DNA from: an uncultured Actinomycetota bacterium
GTDB taxonomy: Bacteria > Actinomycetota > UBA4738 > HRBIN12
NCBI GenBank assembly: GCA_963737525.1
Contig: CAVTTD010000017.1
Location: 515-64,514 of the forward strand
Length of the DNA: 64,000 nt
Reading direction: 5' to 3'
Part shown: piece by piece, positions 3,199-48,765 of the stretch
How the letters are laid out: each line of letters begins with the position of its first letter
Position numbering within the stretch: the first letter of the stretch is position 1
Program-made: the position numbers and the translations under genes
Notes under the pieces: generated by a model
The model's input: the letters and a program-made list of their open reading frames with translations, nothing else
Databases searched by the model: none
Told to the model about the DNA's origin: nothing

Positions 3199-4140
3199 TC
3201 AGTCCTCGGCGAGGTCGACCGCCGCGCGCGTCCGCTCGACGTCCTGCCCGATCGCCGCCACGAGGTCGTCGACGGCGTCGAATCTGATCTCGTCGCGCAG
3301 GCGCTCCCAGAACTCGACCGTGAGCGTGTCGCCGCGGAGCTCGTCGTCGGGGAAGGCCAGGAGGAACGCCTCGACATGCAACGGCTCCGTCCCGAACGTC
3401 GGATTCGTCCCGACGTCGATCGCCGCCACATACCGATCGCCGTCCTCGAGCTGCGCGACGCCGGCGTAGATCCCCTGGCCCGGGAGCAGGAGCCGAGGCC
3501 AGGTGCGGAGGTTCGCGGTCGGGTAGCCGAGGTCCTTTCCGCGGCCCGCACCGGCTACGACCTCCCCGTCGACGGCGAACCGACGGCCGAGCCCGGTCCG
3601 CGGCCATAAGAGGTCGCCCGCGCCGAGCGCTGCCCGGATCGACGACGAGGAGACGACCCGGTCGTCGATCGCGAACAGGCCGACGTCGTCCGCGGTCATG
3701 CCGAGCGGCTCACCGACGTCACGCAGGGTCGCCACGGTGCCGGCGGCGCGATGTCCGAACCGGAAGTCGGCCCCCACTCGGGCATGCACGGCATGCAGTC
3801 CCCCCACGAGCACGTCGCGGACGAAGTCCTCGGCCGAGACCTCGGAGAACCGCTGCGTGAACTCGAGCACGACCAAGACGTCGATCCCACAGGTCGCGAT
3901 CAGCTCCGCCTTGCGCTCCACGGTGGTCAGCAGGCGCGGTTCCTCGCCCGGTGTGAGGATCTCTCGCGGATGTCGATCGAAGGTCACGGCCACGCTCCGC
4001 GCGTCCCGCTCCTTCGCTGCTTCGACGGTCCTCCGGATGACCTCCTGGTGACCCAGATGGACCCCGTCGAAGAAGCCGATCGTCACGGCCGACGGGCCGT
4101 CGGGCAGCGGGAGAGCGTCGAGGCCCCGGACGACGTCCAT
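3199..4140 (-). CDS. ribF: bifunctional riboflavin kinase / FMN adenylyltransferase
   Basis: 313 aa with N-terminal FAD-synthetase motif GFFDGVHLGHQ and a C-terminal riboflavin-kinase domain (GRGKDLGYPTANL...). Confidence 0.93.
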   Translation of the reverse strand: MDVVRGLDALPLPDGPSAVTIGFFDGVHLGHQEVIRRTVEAAKERDARSVAVTFDRHPREILTPGEEPRLLTTVERKAELIATCGIDVLVVLEFTQRFSEVSAEDFVRDVLVGGLHAVHARVGADFRFGHRAAGTVATLRDVGEPLGMTADDVGLFAIDDRVVSSSSIRAALGAGDLLWPRTGLGRRFAVDGEVVAGAGRGKDLGYPTANLRTWPRLLLPGQGIYAGVAQLEDGDRYVAAIDVGTNPTFGTEPLHVEAFLLAFPDDELRGDTLTVEFWERLRDEIRFDAVDDLVAAIGQDVERTRAAVDLAED

Positions 4141-30762: not shown

Positions 30763-31260
30763 TCAGACCTCCAGCGGCGCGAGCCGGATGAACCGCCAGA
30801 CCTCGACCGGTCCGAGGTACTCGAGCGGATCCACGTAGGTGTCGTCGAGGAGCACCCCGAAATGCAGGTTGGGAACGAGGTCTCCGGCATGGCCGGTGCC
30901 TGACCGCGCGACCACCTGTCCCATGGAAACCGTGTCGCCGCGCCTGGCGGCGAGCGCGCTGAGGAAGGAGTACCGGGATTCCAGCCCCGCCCCGTGATCG
31001 ATCGTGAGGAACAGCCGCCCGCCGACCGGACCGGCGAACGTGACGACCCCCGCCTCCGCGGCGATGACGGGGGTGCCCACCGACGTGGCGATGTCGATCC
31101 CCCGGTGACCCGAGCCGAACGGAGTGTCCGGCGGGTCGAACCCGCGGATGACGGGACCGACGACGGGCCACGACCAGTCCGCGGCGGCGCGCGCCTGCCC
31201 GGCGGCTGCGGGCGCGAGCACCACCCATGCGACCGCTACGAACATGAGCAGCCTCTTCAC
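30763..31260 (-). CDS. secreted M23-family (LytM-domain) peptidase
   Basis: 165 aa; signal peptide MKRLLMFVAVAWVVLAPAAAGQA, then the M23 motifs HRGIDIA ... DHGAGLESRY ... HLHFGV. Confidence 0.85.
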   Translation of the reverse strand: MKRLLMFVAVAWVVLAPAAAGQARAAADWSWPVVGPVIRGFDPPDTPFGSGHRGIDIATSVGTPVIAAEAGVVTFAGPVGGRLFLTIDHGAGLESRYSFLSALAARRGDTVSMGQVVARSGTGHAGDLVPNLHFGVLLDDTYVDPLEYLGPVEVWRFIRLAPLEV

Positions 31261-31331
31261 GAGAACGACGCTAGAAGGCCTCGGCGGCGCGCGCCGTGAA
31301 ACGCGTCACATCGACGCGGAGGAACCGTCGG

Positions 31332-43599: not shown

Positions 43600-44271
43600 C
43601 TAGTGCTCGAGGTCAGGCCGGTTCCGATGCGTCTTCTCGAGTGCGGCGTCGGCGCGCCACCGCTCGATCGCGCCATGATCGCCAGAGAGCAAGACCTCGG
43701 GCACGGCCATGCCACGGTACTCGGGCGGCCGGGTGTAGTGGGGATGGTCCAAGGACCAGGGTTCCGCGAAGGAATCCCGCTCGTGGGACTCCTCCTTGCC
43801 GATGACGCCGGGAACGAGCCGGGTGACGGCCTCGATGACCACCAGCGCAGGGATCTCGCCGCCCGCGACCACGTAGTCCCCGATCGACACCTCTTCGGCC
43901 GGGAGCCCTTCGACGACCCGCTCGTCCACACCTTCGTACCGGCCGCAGAGGAGTGTCAGGTGTTCCTCCTCGGCGAGTTCTCGCACGAAGGCCTGGTCCA
44001 GAGGCCGTCCTGCCGGGGACAGGAGCAGCACACGGCCGCGGTCTGGATCCAGCGACTCGACCGCGGCGAAGAAAGGCTCGGGCTTCATCACCATCCCCGG
44101 ACCGCCGCCGTACGCCGTGTCGTCGACCATCCGGTGGCGATCGTCGGACCATTCCCGGAGGTCGTGCACCCGGACGTCGAGCAACCCTTCCGCGATCGCC
44201 TTCCCCAGGAGGCTCTCCCGCACAGGCCCTCCGAAGATCCCCGGGAAGATCGTGAACACGTCGATCCGCAT
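43600..44271 (-). CDS. trmD: tRNA (guanine37-N1)-methyltransferase
   Basis: 223 aa; MRIDVFTIFPGIF...DVRVHDLREW...VDDTAYGGGPGMVMKPEP...LLCGRYEGVDERV is classic TrmD. Confidence 0.93.
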   Translation of the reverse strand: MRIDVFTIFPGIFGGPVRESLLGKAIAEGLLDVRVHDLREWSDDRHRMVDDTAYGGGPGMVMKPEPFFAAVESLDPDRGRVLLLSPAGRPLDQAFVRELAEEEHLTLLCGRYEGVDERVVEGLPAEEVSIGDYVVAGGEIPALVVIEAVTRLVPGVIGKEESHERDSFAEPWSLDHPHYTRPPEYRGMAVPEVLLSGDHGAIERWRADAALEKTHRNRPDLEH

Positions 44272-44352
44272 CGAGCGAGGCTAGCAACGTTGCGTCCGCG
44301 ACCGCGTCGAGGCACGATGCGCCCGACCGGCCGCGGGCCGGACGGAGGAACG

Positions 44353-46632
44353 ATGACGCCGATCGTCCTGGTGGTGCTCATGTTCGTCGGGATCGTGATC
44401 GCCGTGGACACCGTGCGTCGGCGGAAGATCCGCATCGCGCGAACGATCGATCTCCAAGGGTGGGTCGCCGCGCGCCTTGCGGAACCGGGGCCGCCGGTGC
44501 TCACGGAGGCGCTCGCCTCGGCGTTGACGCGCGAGCCGCCGGTCCACGTGGATCTCTACGTCAAGCTGACCGAGTCCCTGGAGATCGCCAACCTGCGCCC
44601 TCGGCTGCGGGACGGGTGCGAGGTGAAGATCTTCCGGCTCCGCTGGGGGAACGACTTCGCGATGATCGCTCGCGACGACCGTGAGCTCCACTATCGGCTC
44701 GAGGTCTGGGAGGCGGAGCTGCTCCCGAAGCTGGACGGGACGAGGACCGTCGGTGATCTGGTCGTCGAGCGGATGGAAGCCGGTGGTGGGCTCGACGCCG
44801 AGCCGGTGACCGATCTCGTCGTGGCCTTGTACGGAGGCGGTTTCCTCGATCCCGCTCCCATCGCGACCAACGAGCTGATCGTGGACCGGCTCGATCCCTC
44901 GTCCCCGGGCCGAAAGAAGCTGACGCGGTTCGGCAAGACACTCTCGATCGAGTGGAAAGGCGCGGACCGTCTGGTCCGCTTCTGCTATCGGAACCTCCTG
45001 CGGCCGTTCTTCTGGTGGCCCGTCGCGCTCGTGTCCGGCCTCGTCGCGATCGCTGGGCTGGCAGCCTTCGTCGATGTCTATGCCTCCGGACGGTTCTCGA
45101 TCGGGGGGGAATCCGCCCCGACCGAGGCGGCGATCTTGCTCGCCCTCGCGTTCTTCCTGACGTTCATGCACGAGCTCGGGCACTCGGTCGTCATCTCCCG
45201 TTACAACCGGAAGGTGAAGGGCGCCGGCTTCATGATCTATTTCGGCTCGCCTGCCTTCTTCGTCGAGGCGACGGACAGCCTCATGCTCGAACGAAGACAG
45301 CGCATCCTCCAAGCTTCCGCCGGGCCGTTCACGGAGCTGATCATCGCCGGAGTGGCTTCGCTCGTGATCTTCGCTTCCCCAGACGGTCCGCTTGCGGACC
45401 TGCTCTACAAATTCGCGCTCCTCAACTACATCGTGATCTTCCTGAATCTCGTCCCCTTGCTGGAACTCGACGGCTACTTCATCCTCTCCGACCTGATCCA
45501 GGTCCCCGACCTCCGACCCCGCTCCCTTCAGTTCATCCAGCACGACCTGTGGCACAAGATCTCGTCGCGCGAACGCCTGACGCCCCAGGAGTGGGGTCTC
45601 GGGGGATACGGGTTCGCCGGGATCGCGTTCACGATCTTCTCCTTCTGGACGGGATTGTTCTTCTGGAAGGTGATCTTCTTGAATCTGGCCGTCGGTCTTT
45701 GGAACGGCGGCATCGGCTCGAAAGTCTTGTTGGTGCTGCTGGGCGCGTTCCTCGCTGGACCGATCATCCGCGGCCTGCTCACACTGACTCTCAGCCTCGT
45801 GAGGCGCATCAGGGGACTCGTTCGAGCGATCCGGTTCCGCCTCGAGACCACCTGGCGGGTCGAGGCGGCGGAGCTGATCGACGCGCTCCCGGCGTTCGAC
45901 GATCTTCCCGAGGATGTCCTCTCGGACCTCGCGGGGCGTGTGCGACTGCGGATCCTTCGCGCCGGCGAGCCGGCCTTCCGCCAAGGGGACCAGCCGGACG
46001 CCTTCTACATCGTGCGGCGGGGCACCGTGCGCATCGAGGACGAGGATCCGGAGACGAGCGCCACACGCATCATCCGGACGATGGGTCGGGGCGAATCGTT
46101 CGGCGAGATGGGGCTCCTCGGCGGGCGACGGCGCCAGGCGACCGTCCGGGCAGGGGACGACGTGGAGCTCTTCGAGGTGGACAAGGGCACCTTCGACCGG
46201 CTGCTCGCCGATGACATGCGCGCGCCTGAGTTCGGTCACACGATGCAGGCGCTCGCCGAGCTCCGGGAGCTCTCGGTCTTCCACGGGCTGGACTCCGAGC
46301 AGCTGAACGTCATCCTTGAACACGGGGAGTGGATCACTGCCGTCCACGGCGACGAACTCATCACACAAGGTGAGCCGGGAGACCGGTTCTACGTGATCGA
46401 GTCGGGACGGGCCGAGATCATCCGGGACGGGACCGGCCTCGACTCCGTGAGCAAGGGGATGTACTTCGGCGAGGTTGCCCTGCTTCGCGACGTCCCGAGG
46501 ACGGCCACGGTGGTCGCCTCCACCCCGATGCGTCTGTTCGCCCTCGATCGTGAAGGCTTCGAGCTCGTCGTCGCCGATGCCTTCCGGCGCGGTACGCTCC
46601 GCCCCGCCGCCGACCGCATCTGGCAGCACTGA
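44353..46632 (+). CDS. M50-family (site-2-protease-like) metalloprotease fused to two C-terminal cyclic-nucleotide-binding domains
   Basis: ATG at 44353 after GGAGGA. 759 aa.
- N-terminal TM MTPIVLVVLMFVGIVIAV.
- An about 200-aa domain of unknown type.
- M50 core with HExxH (FFLTFMHELGHSVV) and the S2P second motif (LNLVPLLELDGYFIL) amid TM helices.
- Two CAP_ED domains: FGEMGLLGGRRRQATVRA and FGEVALLRDVPRTATVVA. Confidence 0.75.
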   Translation: MTPIVLVVLMFVGIVIAVDTVRRRKIRIARTIDLQGWVAARLAEPGPPVLTEALASALTREPPVHVDLYVKLTESLEIANLRPRLRDGCEVKIFRLRWGNDFAMIARDDRELHYRLEVWEAELLPKLDGTRTVGDLVVERMEAGGGLDAEPVTDLVVALYGGGFLDPAPIATNELIVDRLDPSSPGRKKLTRFGKTLSIEWKGADRLVRFCYRNLLRPFFWWPVALVSGLVAIAGLAAFVDVYASGRFSIGGESAPTEAAILLALAFFLTFMHELGHSVVISRYNRKVKGAGFMIYFGSPAFFVEATDSLMLERRQRILQASAGPFTELIIAGVASLVIFASPDGPLADLLYKFALLNYIVIFLNLVPLLELDGYFILSDLIQVPDLRPRSLQFIQHDLWHKISSRERLTPQEWGLGGYGFAGIAFTIFSFWTGLFFWKVIFLNLAVGLWNGGIGSKVLLVLLGAFLAGPIIRGLLTLTLSLVRRIRGLVRAIRFRLETTWRVEAAELIDALPAFDDLPEDVLSDLAGRVRLRILRAGEPAFRQGDQPDAFYIVRRGTVRIEDEDPETSATRIIRTMGRGESFGEMGLLGGRRRQATVRAGDDVELFEVDKGTFDRLLADDMRAPEFGHTMQALAELRELSVFHGLDSEQLNVILEHGEWITAVHGDELITQGEPGDRFYVIESGRAEIIRDGTGLDSVSKGMYFGEVALLRDVPRTATVVASTPMRLFALDREGFELVVADAFRRGTLRPAADRIWQH

Positions 46633-46643
46633 AAGGGGAACGC

Positions 46644-46856
46644 GTGGATTGCTGGCACTGCCGCCGGACCGCCGTGGGGACCTGCCGATTCTGCGGTCGC
46701 GGCGTCTGCGAGGACCACGCGGAGACCCAGCCGTTCGTGCTCGAGCTGTTCCGGAGCAAGGACGTCACCCGCGCGCTCGTCGTGGAGGACGCGCTCTGGT
46801 GCGCGGCCTGCACACCTCGCCCGGACCCGGTGGACCTGCCGGAGCTCGATGCCTGA
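46644..46856 (+). CDS. small four-Cys zinc-ribbon protein
   Basis: GTG start 11 nt after the protease stop, with AAGGGG SD. 70 aa: (M)DCWHCRRTAVGTCRFCGRGVCEDHAE...LWCAACTPRPDPVDLPELDA, carrying CxxC-x7-CxxC-x4-C ... CxxC. Confidence 0.5.
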   Translation: MDCWHCRRTAVGTCRFCGRGVCEDHAETQPFVLELFRSKDVTRALVVEDALWCAACTPRPDPVDLPELDA

Positions 46857-46870
46857 CGTCCCGTTCCAGG

Positions 46871-46970
46871 TGTGACCTACGTCACATCCCGCGCCTGTTC
46901 CGCGTCACATCTCGCGGTCGTTGGGCGTCACAACGCTCCTGGTGACGAATGTCACCGTCTTCGCGTGACA
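46871..46970. promoter_or_regulatory. cluster of CRP/FNR-type boxes
   Basis: Perfect TGTGA-N6-TCACA (TGTGACCTACGTCACA, 46871-46886). GTCACA half-sites at 46904 and 46927. GGTGACGAATGTCACC (46941-46956). GTGACA at 46965, giving TGTCAC-N9-GTGACA. The cluster lies 14 bp after the zinc-ribbon ORF and upstream of the small basic ORF and the CRP-family gene. Confidence 0.55.
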
Positions 46971-47065
46971 CGCACCACCGACCGGCCGTGCCCGAGGCGA
47001 CATGATTCGGGTGTCGAAGAACAGGGCCCGACTCGGGCCCACGGACTCAGGAGGAGGACCCTGGG

Positions 47066-47200
47066 ATGGCGGACAAGAAGATCACTCCGAAGGCGGCAAG
47101 CTCCAAGGACAAGGCGTCGGGCGACCGCGCCGCGGCTCGCGTCTCGCTGAGGACCACCAAGCGGACGACCAAGCGGACCACCAAGCGGACCACCAAGTAG
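47066..47200 (+). CDS. 44-aa highly basic peptide with C-terminal (TTKR)x4 tandem repeat
   Basis: ATG at 47066 with strong SD AGGAGGAGGA (47049-47058). Translation: MADKKITPKAASSKDKASGDRAAARVSLRTTKRTTKRTTKRTTK. A hairpin GGGCCCG-ACT-CGGGCCC (47024-47040) precedes it and a terminator follows. Too short for the ORF track. Confidence 0.45.
   Translation: MADKKITPKAASSKDKASGDRAAARVSLRTTKRTTKRTTKRTTK
47153..47197 (+). repeat. 12-nt tandem repeat (ACCACCAAGCGG x3.75) encoding the TTKR repeats
   Basis: Units: accaccaagcgg / acgaccaagcgg / accaccaagcgg / accaccaag. Confidence 0.8.
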
Positions 47201-47231
47201 CAGGTCCGATCTTCGGACTGAACGTGATCGA

Positions 47232-47266
47232 GGACGGGCGCCGCAGGCGCCCGTCCTTCGTTTTGG
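47232..47266 (+). terminator. Rho-independent terminator after the small basic ORF
   Basis: GGACGGGCGCC-GCAG-GCGCCCGTCC (perfect 10-11-bp stem) followed by TTCGTTTTGG. Confidence 0.6.
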
Positions 47267-47301
47267 CTTGCACGAGGCAGCCGGGCTAGGCTCCTCTCGT
47301 C

Positions 47302-48003
47302 ATGCGAAGGGCCGACGACCTCCAGGTAGGCAAGGTGATGGCGGGCGCCCCGTTCCTCGAGCAGGTCCCGCACGAGGCCCTGGATCGGTTCGCCACGCAG
47401 GGCGCCGTCCACCGCTTCCGCCGGGGGACCTACCTCTGTCACCAGGGCGACCCGGACGGAGACGTCTTCTTCCTGGTATCCGGCCGGGTCGAGATCAGCT
47501 CCGAGACGGCCAACGGGAACAGGGTGTTGCACGCGACCTTGGATACCCCCGGGTTCGTCGGCGAGCTCTCGGCCCTCGGGAAGATGCCGAGGACCGCGAG
47601 CGTCCTCACCCTCGACGACTCGGACGTGTGGTCGACGGGGCCAGAGTCCTTCCTCGACTTCGTGACGGCCGAACCAGCCGCGTCTCGCGGCTTCCTCCAG
47701 GCGCTGGCCCGCCAGGTTCGGGAGCATCAGTCCTTCACCGACGACCTCCTGCACCTCGACCTGAAGGGCCGGCTCGCGAAGCGGCTCCTCCAGCTCGTGA
47801 CGCCCACCCTCGACGATCTTCCGAAGGACGGGGTACTCGTCCCGGCCGTCACGCACGCCGACCTTGCGAGCCTGTGCGGCGGCAGCCGGGAGAACGTGAC
47901 CCGCATCCTCACCGAGTGGCAGCGGCGCGGGCTCGTGGAGCGCGATGGGCATCGCTACGTCCTGAAGAAGGTGTCCGGCCTGGCGAAGATCGCCGACCTC
48001 TAG
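47302..48003 (+). CDS. CRP/FNR-family transcriptional regulator (CRP-like, no Fe-S cysteines)
   Basis: cNMP-binding domain (GDPDGDVFFLVSGRVEI...FVGELSALG...RTASVLT). C-terminal HTH with TGTGA-reading residues ADLASLCGGSRENVTRILTEW. Alternative start ATG 47338 (MAGAPFLEQ...) has a better SD. The stop shares CTAG with the rimM stop. Confidence 0.85.
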   Translation: MRRADDLQVGKVMAGAPFLEQVPHEALDRFATQGAVHRFRRGTYLCHQGDPDGDVFFLVSGRVEISSETANGNRVLHATLDTPGFVGELSALGKMPRTASVLTLDDSDVWSTGPESFLDFVTAEPAASRGFLQALARQVREHQSFTDDLLHLDLKGRLAKRLLQLVTPTLDDLPKDGVLVPAVTHADLASLCGGSRENVTRILTEWQRRGLVERDGHRYVLKKVSGLAKIADL

Positions 48004-48533
48004 TCCTGAGTCTCCTCTGGGGACTCTTCGGGCGCGGTGAGTCCCGGCACGTCTTTCACCACGATCGTTCGAGCGACGACGTCGACGTCGACGAGGAGGT
48101 CGGCGAGCGCCGGGACCAATGTTTCGTTCCCTTCCTCGTCCACGGCGACCCAGAGGTCGTTGGCTGGGTTCGGGATGACCTCCTTCACGATGCCGAGGAC
48201 GCGGCCCGACGCGGTCCGCACCTCGCACCCCTCGAGCTGGTAGGCCCACCACTCTTCGTCCGCCAGATCGGGCAGCCAGGACTCCGGGACGACGAGAACG
48301 GCACCACGGAGATCCTCGGCGGCGCTGCGATCCACGATCCCCGCGAACTTCACGATCAGTCGGCGGCCGTGGCGTCTGCTCGCTTCGATCGTGAGCGCGG
48401 CACCGTCTTCGCGGAGGACGGTGCCACCCGGCGCCCAGCGATCCGGATTGTCGGAGCGGTTCTGTACGGAGACATCCCCGCGAAGGCCGTGGACCCCTGT
48501 CACCACGCCGACGACGACGGTCGGCTCGTCCAC
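48000..48533 (-). CDS. rimM: 16S rRNA processing protein RimM
   Basis: GTG start 1 nt after the KH-protein stop: (M)DEPTVVVGVVTGVHGLRGDVSVQNRSDNPDRW... plus PRC barrel ...VLGIVKEVIPNPANDLWVAV. 177 aa. Confidence 0.88.
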   Translation of the reverse strand: MDEPTVVVGVVTGVHGLRGDVSVQNRSDNPDRWAPGGTVLREDGAALTIEASRRHGRRLIVKFAGIVDRSAAEDLRGAVLVVPESWLPDLADEEWWAYQLEGCEVRTASGRVLGIVKEVIPNPANDLWVAVDEEGNETLVPALADLLVDVDVVARTIVVKDVPGLTAPEESPEETQD

Positions 48534-48534
48534 C

Positions 48535-48765
48535 TCAGTCTTCGATGTCCACCATGGCGCCATGACCCTGGCGCTGCGCGGCCGCGCGGACGACGGTGCG
48601 GATCGCCTTGGCCGTTCGGCCGCCCCGGCCGATGACCTTGCCCATGTCATCCGGGGCCACCCGAACGCGATAGCGAGGACCACGCTCGTCGAAGGTTTCC
48701 TCGATGGAGACGGAATCGGGCTCGTCGACCAACTCCTGCACGAGGAACTCGACGAGATCCTTCAC
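48535..48765 (-). CDS. KH-domain RNA-binding protein
   Basis: 76 aa; [56 protein letters not shown]. Conserved rpsP-KH-rimM arrangement; ATGA overlap with rpsP. Confidence 0.8.

Follow-up and report, generated by a model that had tools for sequence, protein, structure and literature searches.

The locus examined here raises the question of what a dense group of CRP-type boxes controls. It lies in a stretch of 64,000 nucleotides (the window) of contig CAVTTD010000017.1, which comes from an uncultured Actinomycetota bacterium. The boxes are situated between an open reading frame (ORF) for a Zn-ribbon protein and a small basic ORF, and the latter is followed by a gene for a CRP-family regulator. 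A first-pass annotation of the window had described a dense cluster of boxes at this place and had considered both the control of the small ORF and the autoregulation of the regulator gene to be likely. Based on the present analysis, it was concluded that the boxes form a phased array of six sites, which probably serves as the control region of the small-ORF promoter.

A phased array of six CRP-type boxes

Six 16-bp CRP-type sites, designated O1 to O6, follow one another in steps of 23, 23, 24, 23 and 23 bp, and the whole array is packed into 132 bp (Table 1). The perfect palindrome reported by the annotation was recovered as O1. It was the sole match without a mismatch in the 64 kb and carried 10 of the 10 bases specified by the CRP operator definition (16 bp, TGTGA-N6-TCACA). 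The second palindrome claimed there corresponds to O4, in which the GTGA-N6-TCAC core is present. The half-sites were located as well (GTCACA at 46904-46909 and 46927-46932, GTGACA at 46965-46970), although they are not copies of one hexamer: GTGACA and GTCACA are not reverse complements of each other, and the pentamer GT(G/C)AC is the element common to both. The position of the cluster relative to the three ORFs was given correctly.

The cluster itself proved to be real and not a product of chance, yet it is not a loose group of sites but an array phased at 23-24 bp. Seven GTGAC/GTCAC cores were counted within 46872-46969, when the maximum per 100 bp in 200 Markov simulations was five and usually three; a similar density at random, which the annotation had named as a possible objection, was not seen. 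Boxes with one mismatch at most numbered two in the window against 0.53 expected, a count reached in 9 of 100 shuffles, and boxes with two mismatches at most showed no enrichment there (11 observed, 10.45 expected). The single-site statistics are weak and the signal is carried by the clustering. A plain count of TGTGA-N6-TCACA would have missed the region.

Further, the sites were ranked by a weight matrix that had been trained solely on M23 peptidase promoter sites from other loci and was independent of the array. Among the 63,985 positions of the window, O1 took the 2nd, O4 the 12th, O5 the 28th and O2 the 42nd place. A 23-bp tandem repeat at 46880-46932 was reported independently by Tandem Repeats Finder (TRF). 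Homologous arrays accounted for 41 of the 42 sites with one mismatch at most in 277 kb of related loci. By arithmetic, the five steps of 23-24 bp amount to 115-116 bp or ~11 helical turns with a rotation of ~69 degrees per dimer, and six dimers would make about one turn around the DNA. The array begins 15 nt past the stop codon of the Zn-ribbon ORF with no terminator between them. In distant relatives this stop codon overlaps the first box (GAGTGAC...).

Conservation of the array and its register to the small ORF

A search of one genome per species resulted in 31 loci, all from uncultured soil Actinomycetota, and further loci were obtained through homologues of the small protein, giving 35 loci in total. 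The identity of the regulator across the 31 loci was 88-97% in most and 66-67% in four. A cassette made up of a gene for an M50 protease with cyclic nucleotide-binding (cNMP-binding) domains, the Zn-ribbon gene, the array, the small ORF and the regulator gene was retained in every complete locus.

Thirty-six modules from the 35 loci were anchored on a hexamer of the pattern CA-N-G-N-T. Relative to this hexamer the boxes start at -14, -37, -60, -84, -107, -130 and sometimes -153. Neighbouring boxes were 23 bp apart in 107 cases and 24 bp apart in 29, and the number of boxes per module varied from 3 to 7. The best match was always the distal-most box, with 10-12 of 12 specified bases; it was perfect or had one mismatch in nearly all related modules, and two scored 10/12. 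In 25 distinct close sequences, which were compared without gaps on the same anchor, CGTCACA, GTGACGAACGTCAC, GTGAC and CACCG were 90-100% conserved and the spacers ~40-60%, with CCTACG, GTACGT, CCCGCG, CCTGTG and GCGCGT all seen between invariant half-sites. At the level of single boxes, CGTCACA was near-invariant in the register of O2 (23 bp from O1), GCGTCACA was 90-100% conserved in that of O3 (23 bp from O2), and GTGACGAACGTCAC of O4 was nearly invariant in the close clade, its GAAC spacer included. A spacer that varies between fixed half-sites points to a protein-binding footprint and not to an RNA stem. O6 reads GTGACCGGCGTGACA in many relatives, and its GTGAC core at -13 from the hexamer is kept in most close ones; the box is decayed in the subclade of the window and has no counterpart in loci L027-L030.

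The fixed register persisted in distant loci, where the regulator is 66% identical, and also in L033 and L034. In these two loci the cassette occupies another neighbourhood, between a peroxiredoxin-like gene and moaA, hence the four genes and the array travel together. In L027, L028 and L035 the array, promoter, small ORF and terminator are tandemly duplicated. Each copy has a phased array of its own, which ties the array to the small ORF rather than the regulator gene. In the remaining case to be mentioned, L022, ~40 bp were missing at ~3660-3737, including O6, the hexamer of the promoter and the TTCG-GTGTCGAAGAA block described below, which is conserved. The gap is due to a natural deletion in the promoter or to faulty assembly.

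The hexamer of the window, CATGAT, is likely the -10 element of the small-ORF promoter, as judged from the comparison of relatives. The hexamer was found in 36 of 38 modules at a constant distance from the boxes and 44-68 nt from the ATG codon. Its pattern is the actinobacterial TA-N-N-N-T with C replacing the first T. The spacing from O5 to the hexamer was 21-22 nt in all 36 modules (21 nt in the window), and the sequence between them was not conserved across clades.

The same spacing was observed at a second CRP-type box, which is located upstream of a leaderless gene for an M23 peptidase (31260..30763), on the minus strand. There the box is followed by 21 nt, the hexamer TAGCGT (31273..31268), 7 nt and a GTG start codon, and this layout was conserved in ~30 metagenomic loci with 55-88% protein identity. 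Because the M23 gene is leaderless, its start codon marks the transcription start and the box is centred at ~-42.5. The common 21-nt spacing therefore places O5 at a predicted ~-41.5, a putative class II position, with the other boxes centred as listed in Table 1. The protein that binds the boxes need not be a purely local regulator. The M23 gene is itself situated downstream of a gene for a sigma-70-family sigma factor (regions 2, 3 and 4).

Just after the -10 hexamer of the small ORF lies a block TTCG-N-GTGTCGAAGAA (47007-47022), which is ~90% conserved in the close clade, contains a TTCG/CGAA inverted repeat and spans the predicted transcription start. The GC-rich hairpin in the predicted 5' untranslated region showed compensatory variants when read by eye: GGGTCC...GGACCC in L011, GGACCC...GGGTCC in L013 and GGGCTC...GGAGCCC in L026. 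With RNAalifold, a consensus was not obtained for the 5' untranslated regions, for which the alignment was poor and the hairpin misaligned. The hairpin doubles as a DNA palindrome with a possible protein-binding role, and it has a terminator-like score on the minus strand.

The small ORF is a genuine gene, because its N-terminal 28 codons had a ratio of nonsynonymous to synonymous polymorphism (pN/pS) of ~0.2, with abundant synonymous variation and almost no amino-acid change. All 119 homologues of its product came from uncultured Actinomycetota of one lineage and none had a name; no Pfam or NCBIfam family was assigned to the small ORF. The C-terminal tail consists of basic repeats of 4-5 residues, which vary in copy number and in unit (RTTK, RQTK, RETK, KATH, KRVHA). 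A 12-bp tandem DNA repeat with 3.9 copies (47151-47197) codes for this tail in the window. The protein is composed of a leader-like constant part of 28 residues under purifying selection and a hypervariable part. CrsL, a small actinobacterial partner of RNA polymerase and CarD, was considered for the small ORF and rejected, as the MLGIGP motif is missing (PMC12709188). The terminator hairpin after the gene was conserved with compensatory changes and reads AAGCCCGGGCC...GGCCCGGGCTT in distant loci. Taken with the co-duplication in three loci, the fixed register of the boxes to the putative -10 element in 36 modules strongly supports the control of the small ORF suggested by the annotation.

Table 1. 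Features of the locus; box centres are given relative to the predicted transcription start of the small ORF, and positions are those of the window unless a related locus is named.
Feature	Position	Strand	Centre	Sequence and remarks
O1	46871..46886	.	~-134.5	TGTGACCTACGTCACA; perfect palindrome, most distal, strongest
O2	46894..46909	.	~-111.5	CCTGTTCCGCGTCACA; right half-site GTCACA alone intact
O3	46917..46932	.	~-88.5	GTCGTTGGGCGTCACA; right half-site GTCACA alone intact
O4	46941..46956	.	~-64.5	GGTGACGAATGTCACC; both half-site cores intact
O5	46964..46979	.	~-41.5	CGTGACACGCACCACC; left half GTGAC intact, right half CCACC; class II-like
O6	46987..47002	.	~-18.5	CGTGCCCGAGGCGACA; decayed in the window, overlaps the -10 hexamer
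Putative -10 hexamer, small ORF	47001..47006	+		CATGAT; family pattern CA-N-G-N-T, position 2 A and position 6 T invariant
GC-rich hairpin	47024..47040	+		GGGCCCGACTCGGGCCC; predicted 5' untranslated region
Shine-Dalgarno sequence, small ORF	47050..47057	+		GGAGGAGG; strong, invariant in close loci; GAAGGAGC in L027-L030
Small basic protein gene	47066..47200	+		44 amino acids; MADKKITPKAASSKDKASGDRAAARVSL then (RTTK)n
Intrinsic terminator after small ORF	47230..47268	+		13-bp stem (47230-47258), then T tract CGTTTTGG
Regulator -10 element	47287..47292	+		TAGGCT; 6-9 nt upstream of the start codon, leaderless mRNA
CRP/FNR-family regulator gene	47302..48003	+		233 amino acids; candidate binder of the boxes
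M50 (site-2-protease-type) membrane metalloprotease gene	44311..46632	+		Two cNMP-binding domains; first cassette gene, start approximate
Zn-ribbon protein gene (DUF2180)	46644..46856	+		70 amino acids; second member of the four-gene cassette
Second CRP-type box	31295..31310	-		TGTGACGCGTTTCACG; upstream of the leaderless M23 peptidase gene
Tandem module duplicates	L027 3097-3860; L028; L035 2838-3545

The CRP-family regulator and the proposed mode of control

The product of the adjacent gene belongs to the CRP/FNR family, as had been annotated, and its Pfam domains scored over the cut-offs (PF00027 cNMP_binding, 70.7 bits against 27.5; PF13545 HTH_Crp_2, 55.7 against 27; PF00325, 27.9 against 21). 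The closest solved structures were Rv3676, the CRP of Mycobacterium tuberculosis, and GlxR of Corynebacterium, with E-values of ~1e-20. The reading of the recognition helix in the annotation was borne out: SRENVTRIL aligned column for column with SRETVGRIL of Escherichia coli CRP and SRETVNKAL of M. tuberculosis CRP. The helix residues R180, E181 and R185 of E. coli CRP read TGTGA. The R-E-x-x-x-R pattern is kept in the present regulator, and both the helix and the box cores were unchanged in the clade with 66% identity. The cNMP pocket has the GEL...PRTAS / GE...RTA motif, and its VGELSALGKMPRTAS aligned with IGELGLFEEGQERSA in the E. coli protein and FGELSIFDPGPRTSS in the M. tuberculosis one. 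Judged by these ligand-contact residues, the regulator fits the subgroup of CRPs that bind cyclic AMP (cAMP). A scan of the ten unassigned ORFs of the window did not reveal an adenylate cyclase.

The autoregulation proposed by the annotation was not upheld. The regulator gene has a conserved promoter of its own, and the conserved terminator separates it from the small ORF. The TAGGCT hexamer was essentially invariant in all loci (TAGTCT in one of them). Distant relatives align with the regulator from residue 13 only, but have their own GTG start 6 nt after TAGGCT. Since this invariant element lies 6-9 nt before the start codon and behind the terminator, the regulator gene appears to be transcribed separately as a leaderless mRNA. 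The array could be coupled to it solely through terminator read-through, and there was no box near the regulator promoter in the window. Some relatives have a weak TCTGATCC(T/A)C(C/G)(A/T)CACA site ~100 nt upstream of the regulator gene, formed in part by the last codon and the stop codon of the small ORF. It reads TCTGATCCACGTCACA (one mismatch) at 3896-3911 of L006 and TCTGATCCTCCACACA in L012, L015, L017, L022, L025 and L031. Centred at ~-92 from the regulator start codon and absent in the subclade of the window, this site might give some relatives direct autoregulation.

We proposed, with a probability of about 0.65, that the CRP-type array is the control region of the small-ORF promoter, bound cooperatively by a CRP-family dimer that activates from the class II site O5. 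The boxes would be bound by the dimer in its cyclic nucleotide-bound form, and the likeliest candidate is the regulator encoded 236 bp downstream of the small-ORF start codon. O1 and O4, in which both half-sites are present, would bind tightly; O2, O3 and O5, with one half-site each, would be occupied with the help of cooperative contacts between neighbouring dimers. A dimer at O5, 21 nt upstream of the weak CATGAT element and with no -35 element, would then act by class II activation. High occupancy could shut the promoter through O6, as the tandem sites do at M. tuberculosis whiB1; this box overlaps the -10 element, and many relatives have it in a strong form.

The proposed arrangement has partial precedents. 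At whiB1, two CRP sites (CRP1 at -58.5 and CRP2 at -37.5) lie 21 bp apart and are bound cooperatively, one activating and the other repressing (PMC2844151). Both systems are actinobacterial CRP-family operators with directly adjacent 16-bp sites, one of them in the class II region (here the predicted position of O5), and in both a weaker site would be helped by a stronger one and the output would depend on the number of occupied sites. Unlike whiB1 with its two sites, the present modules have 3-7 boxes, the strongest box is the most distal, the target is the gene of a 44-residue basic protein and the regulator is only ~30% identical to Rv3676. Cmr (Rv1675c), a CRP-family paralogue of M. tuberculosis, binds clustered sites cooperatively (PMC4705688). 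The likeness to Cmr lies in a paralogue distinct from the main CRP, a 16-bp palindrome, a regulator gene adjoining a strong site, and clusters (six at acr/acg, for example) in which groups bind well and single sites poorly. However, the Cmr motif is TGTCA-N6-(C/T)GACA, its clusters extend up to 1 kb without a fixed phase, and Cmr represses its own gene, whereas the regulator gene here has a separate promoter behind a terminator.

Five CRP sites have been described at E. coli mtl and four at malK (PMC13421365). Several boxes upstream of one promoter (class III), a precise spacing and an architectural role of the upstream sites are common to these promoters and the present one; the spacing in E. 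coli, however, is 43-44 and 73 bp at mtl and 34 bp at malK, over 200-270 bp rather than 132 bp. The mtl spacing recruits the bridging co-repressor MtlR, and no such partner is known here. As at class II CRP promoters with a box at -41.5, such as E. coli galP1, O5 and the M23 box would take the place of the -35 region, and their distance from the -10 element is fixed. Unlike at promoters of the galP1 type, the start of small-ORF transcription is a predicted one, the -10 element reads CA-N-G-N-T and five further boxes flank the class II box.

Several observations weigh against the activating array. O3 and O6 were poor matches in the window, with ranks of 953 and 281 in the weight-matrix scan. 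The hexamer starts with C instead of the usual T, the transcription start is solely predicted, and a generic sigma-70 consensus scan of 46600-47400 gave no promoter at the small ORF; hence the -10 assignment of CATGAT rests on comparative evidence. The regulator is only ~24-30% identical to characterised CRPs (24% to E. coli CRP), and its score for the NCBIfam CRP equivalog NF008732 was 71.8 bits against a cut-off of 266, thus it is a member of the family and not an orthologue of a characterised CRP. The offset of ~69 degrees per 23 bp is at odds with classical class I sites, which occupy one face of the helix. As the M23 promoter carries the motif too, the boxes could be bound by a different CRP with a general role in the lineage. 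Finally, occupation of the two adjacent CRP sites of whiB1 leads to repression (PMC2844151), and a fully occupied array could be a repressor complex.

Net repression by the same binder at the same boxes is the alternative that deserves the most weight, although it was judged unlikely. A filled O1-O6 would cover -142 to -11 and occlude the promoter; it may also block read-through from the M50/Zn-ribbon operon, so that the small protein would be made only at low cyclic nucleotide. The overlap of O6 with the -10 hexamer in most relatives and the short, terminator-free interval between the Zn-ribbon stop codon and the array are consistent with this, as are the adjacent sites of whiB1 (21 bp), which repress since the C-terminal domain of the RNA polymerase alpha subunit cannot dock (PMC2844151), and Cmr as an autorepressor with clustered sites (PMC4705688). 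A repressor, however, needs no strict 21-22 nt between O5 and the hexamer; such a distance, kept without sequence conservation and common to the single-box M23 promoter, is an activator-polymerase geometry. O6 is moreover decayed or absent in part of the loci, and a non-consensus -10 element with no -35 element suggests dependence on an activator. It was regarded as doubtful, and ranked behind repression, that the boxes are bound by another general CRP, an Rv3676/GlxR orthologue, with the adjacent gene encoding a paralogue that has other targets or another ligand. The unlinked and conserved M23 promoter argues for a regulon and not a private operator, the adjacent protein is distant from characterised actinobacterial CRPs (~30% identity, E ~1e-20), and actinobacteria often carry several CRP-family genes, M. 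tuberculosis having both CRP and Cmr (PMC4705688). Against this, the regulator gene, array and small ORF occur together in all 35 loci and were relocated jointly in L033 and L034, and no other CRP-family gene was found in the 64-kb window. The adjacent helix has all three base-contacting residues and is nearer to that of E. coli CRP than the helix of M. tuberculosis CRP is, and the lineage's general CRP could be the adjacent protein itself.

Two further readings dispense with a CRP altogether. It is very unlikely that the GTCACA repeats are boxes of an MtrA-type response regulator and the palindromes incidental. Three direct copies of CGTCACA are present at 46880-46932, GT-N-AC is self-complementary except for its middle base, and the published motifs are GTCACAgcg in direct repeats for mycobacteria and GtnAcC-n5-GTnAcn for Streptomyces (PMC13189361). 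The flanking T and A of TGTGA/TCACA, however, are conserved in the strongest boxes, and the motif together with its spacing to the -10 element is typical of CRP. An MtrA dimer binds two direct motifs of 6-7 bp separated by 5-6 nt, with an 11-bp period (PMC13189361); here paired cores stand in inverted orientation at a distance of 9 bp (TGTGAC-N4-GTCACA), unpaired ones at a distance of 23 bp, and MtrA boxes were rejected. The Cmr operator was rejected as well, as the boxes read TGTGA...TCACA and TGACA is found solely in the right half of O6 in some relatives. The least probable of all is that the stretch acts as RNA, through hairpins that belong to a long 5' leader or to the 3' end of the Zn-ribbon mRNA, or is a neutral 23-bp repeat without function. 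The palindromes can form hairpins and both are in the minimum-free-energy fold, the repeat was detected by TRF and the box copy number varies from 3 to 7. However, the folding of 46857-47000 gave a z-score of -1.57, with 14 of 200 shuffles folding at least as well, and the whole window had no Rfam match at the gathering threshold. The half-sites are conserved without compensatory change while the loop (spacer) bases vary, the cores are invariant over a divergence that randomised the spacers, and the hexamer register is fixed.

The cassette and the meaning of the array

The cassette is inserted on the plus strand between trmD and rimM of the minus strand (43600-48683), splitting the usual rpsP-rimM-trmD-rplS row. 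Its first product contains Peptidase_M50 and two cNMP_binding domains of Pfam, with HELGH and NxxPxxxLDG motifs. The closest NCBIfam family was the intramembrane metalloprotease of daptides, a group of peptides that are made by the ribosome and modified after translation (RiPPs), at 156.8 bits and under the cut-off of 300; the YydH/LiaK epipeptide protease family was matched as well. The Zn-ribbon protein matched DUF2180 of Pfam with 23.0 bits against a cut-off of 22.2. It was 82-100% identical across loci, which is higher than its neighbours, and seven Cys and one His were invariant. Its AlphaFold model (mean predicted local distance difference test, pLDDT, 75.7) had no significant fold match in the PDB, the best E-value being 0.49, to cross-brace/PHD-like zinc fingers.

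A rather improbable extension of the activating array is that it forms the transcriptional half of a peptide system gated twice by cyclic nucleotides within the four-gene cassette. The small ORF would then encode a precursor with a conserved 28-residue leader and a hypervariable cationic repeat core, duplicated in some genomes as is frequent for RiPP precursor genes, and the membrane M50 protease with its two cNMP-binding domains, whose closest family is the daptide leader protease, would process it. Six CRP dimers spiralling once over ~11 turns would make a cooperative, switch-like filament that turns precursor synthesis on. By analogy with MtlR, the 23-bp spacing might also bring in a protein that bridges the dimers, for instance the invariant Zn-ribbon protein.

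CRP boxes, tandem sites and multi-site CRP promoters are already known, and it is the dense packing at a strict pitch, together with the order of the sites, that is unusual. In none of whiB1, Cmr, mtl and malK do 3-7 boxes reach into the core promoter with a strict pitch of 23 bp. Here the perfect palindrome is the box farthest from the promoter, half-site boxes come next, and the promoter is met in a fixed register of predicted class II type, a layout that is conserved across a widespread uncultured lineage of soil actinobacteria. If the array is filled cooperatively, a CRP-family protein would act as a short filament and not as one or two dimers, with a sharp and possibly band-pass response to cAMP. 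The array also gives a first handle on the cassette of a cNMP-gated site-2-type protease, a DUF2180 zinc protein, a 44-residue cationic repeat protein and a CRP-family regulator, every member of which is a cyclic-nucleotide sensor or uncharacterised. It further provides a candidate regulon motif for a lineage without a cultured member, with the M23 cell-wall peptidase gene as the second conserved target.

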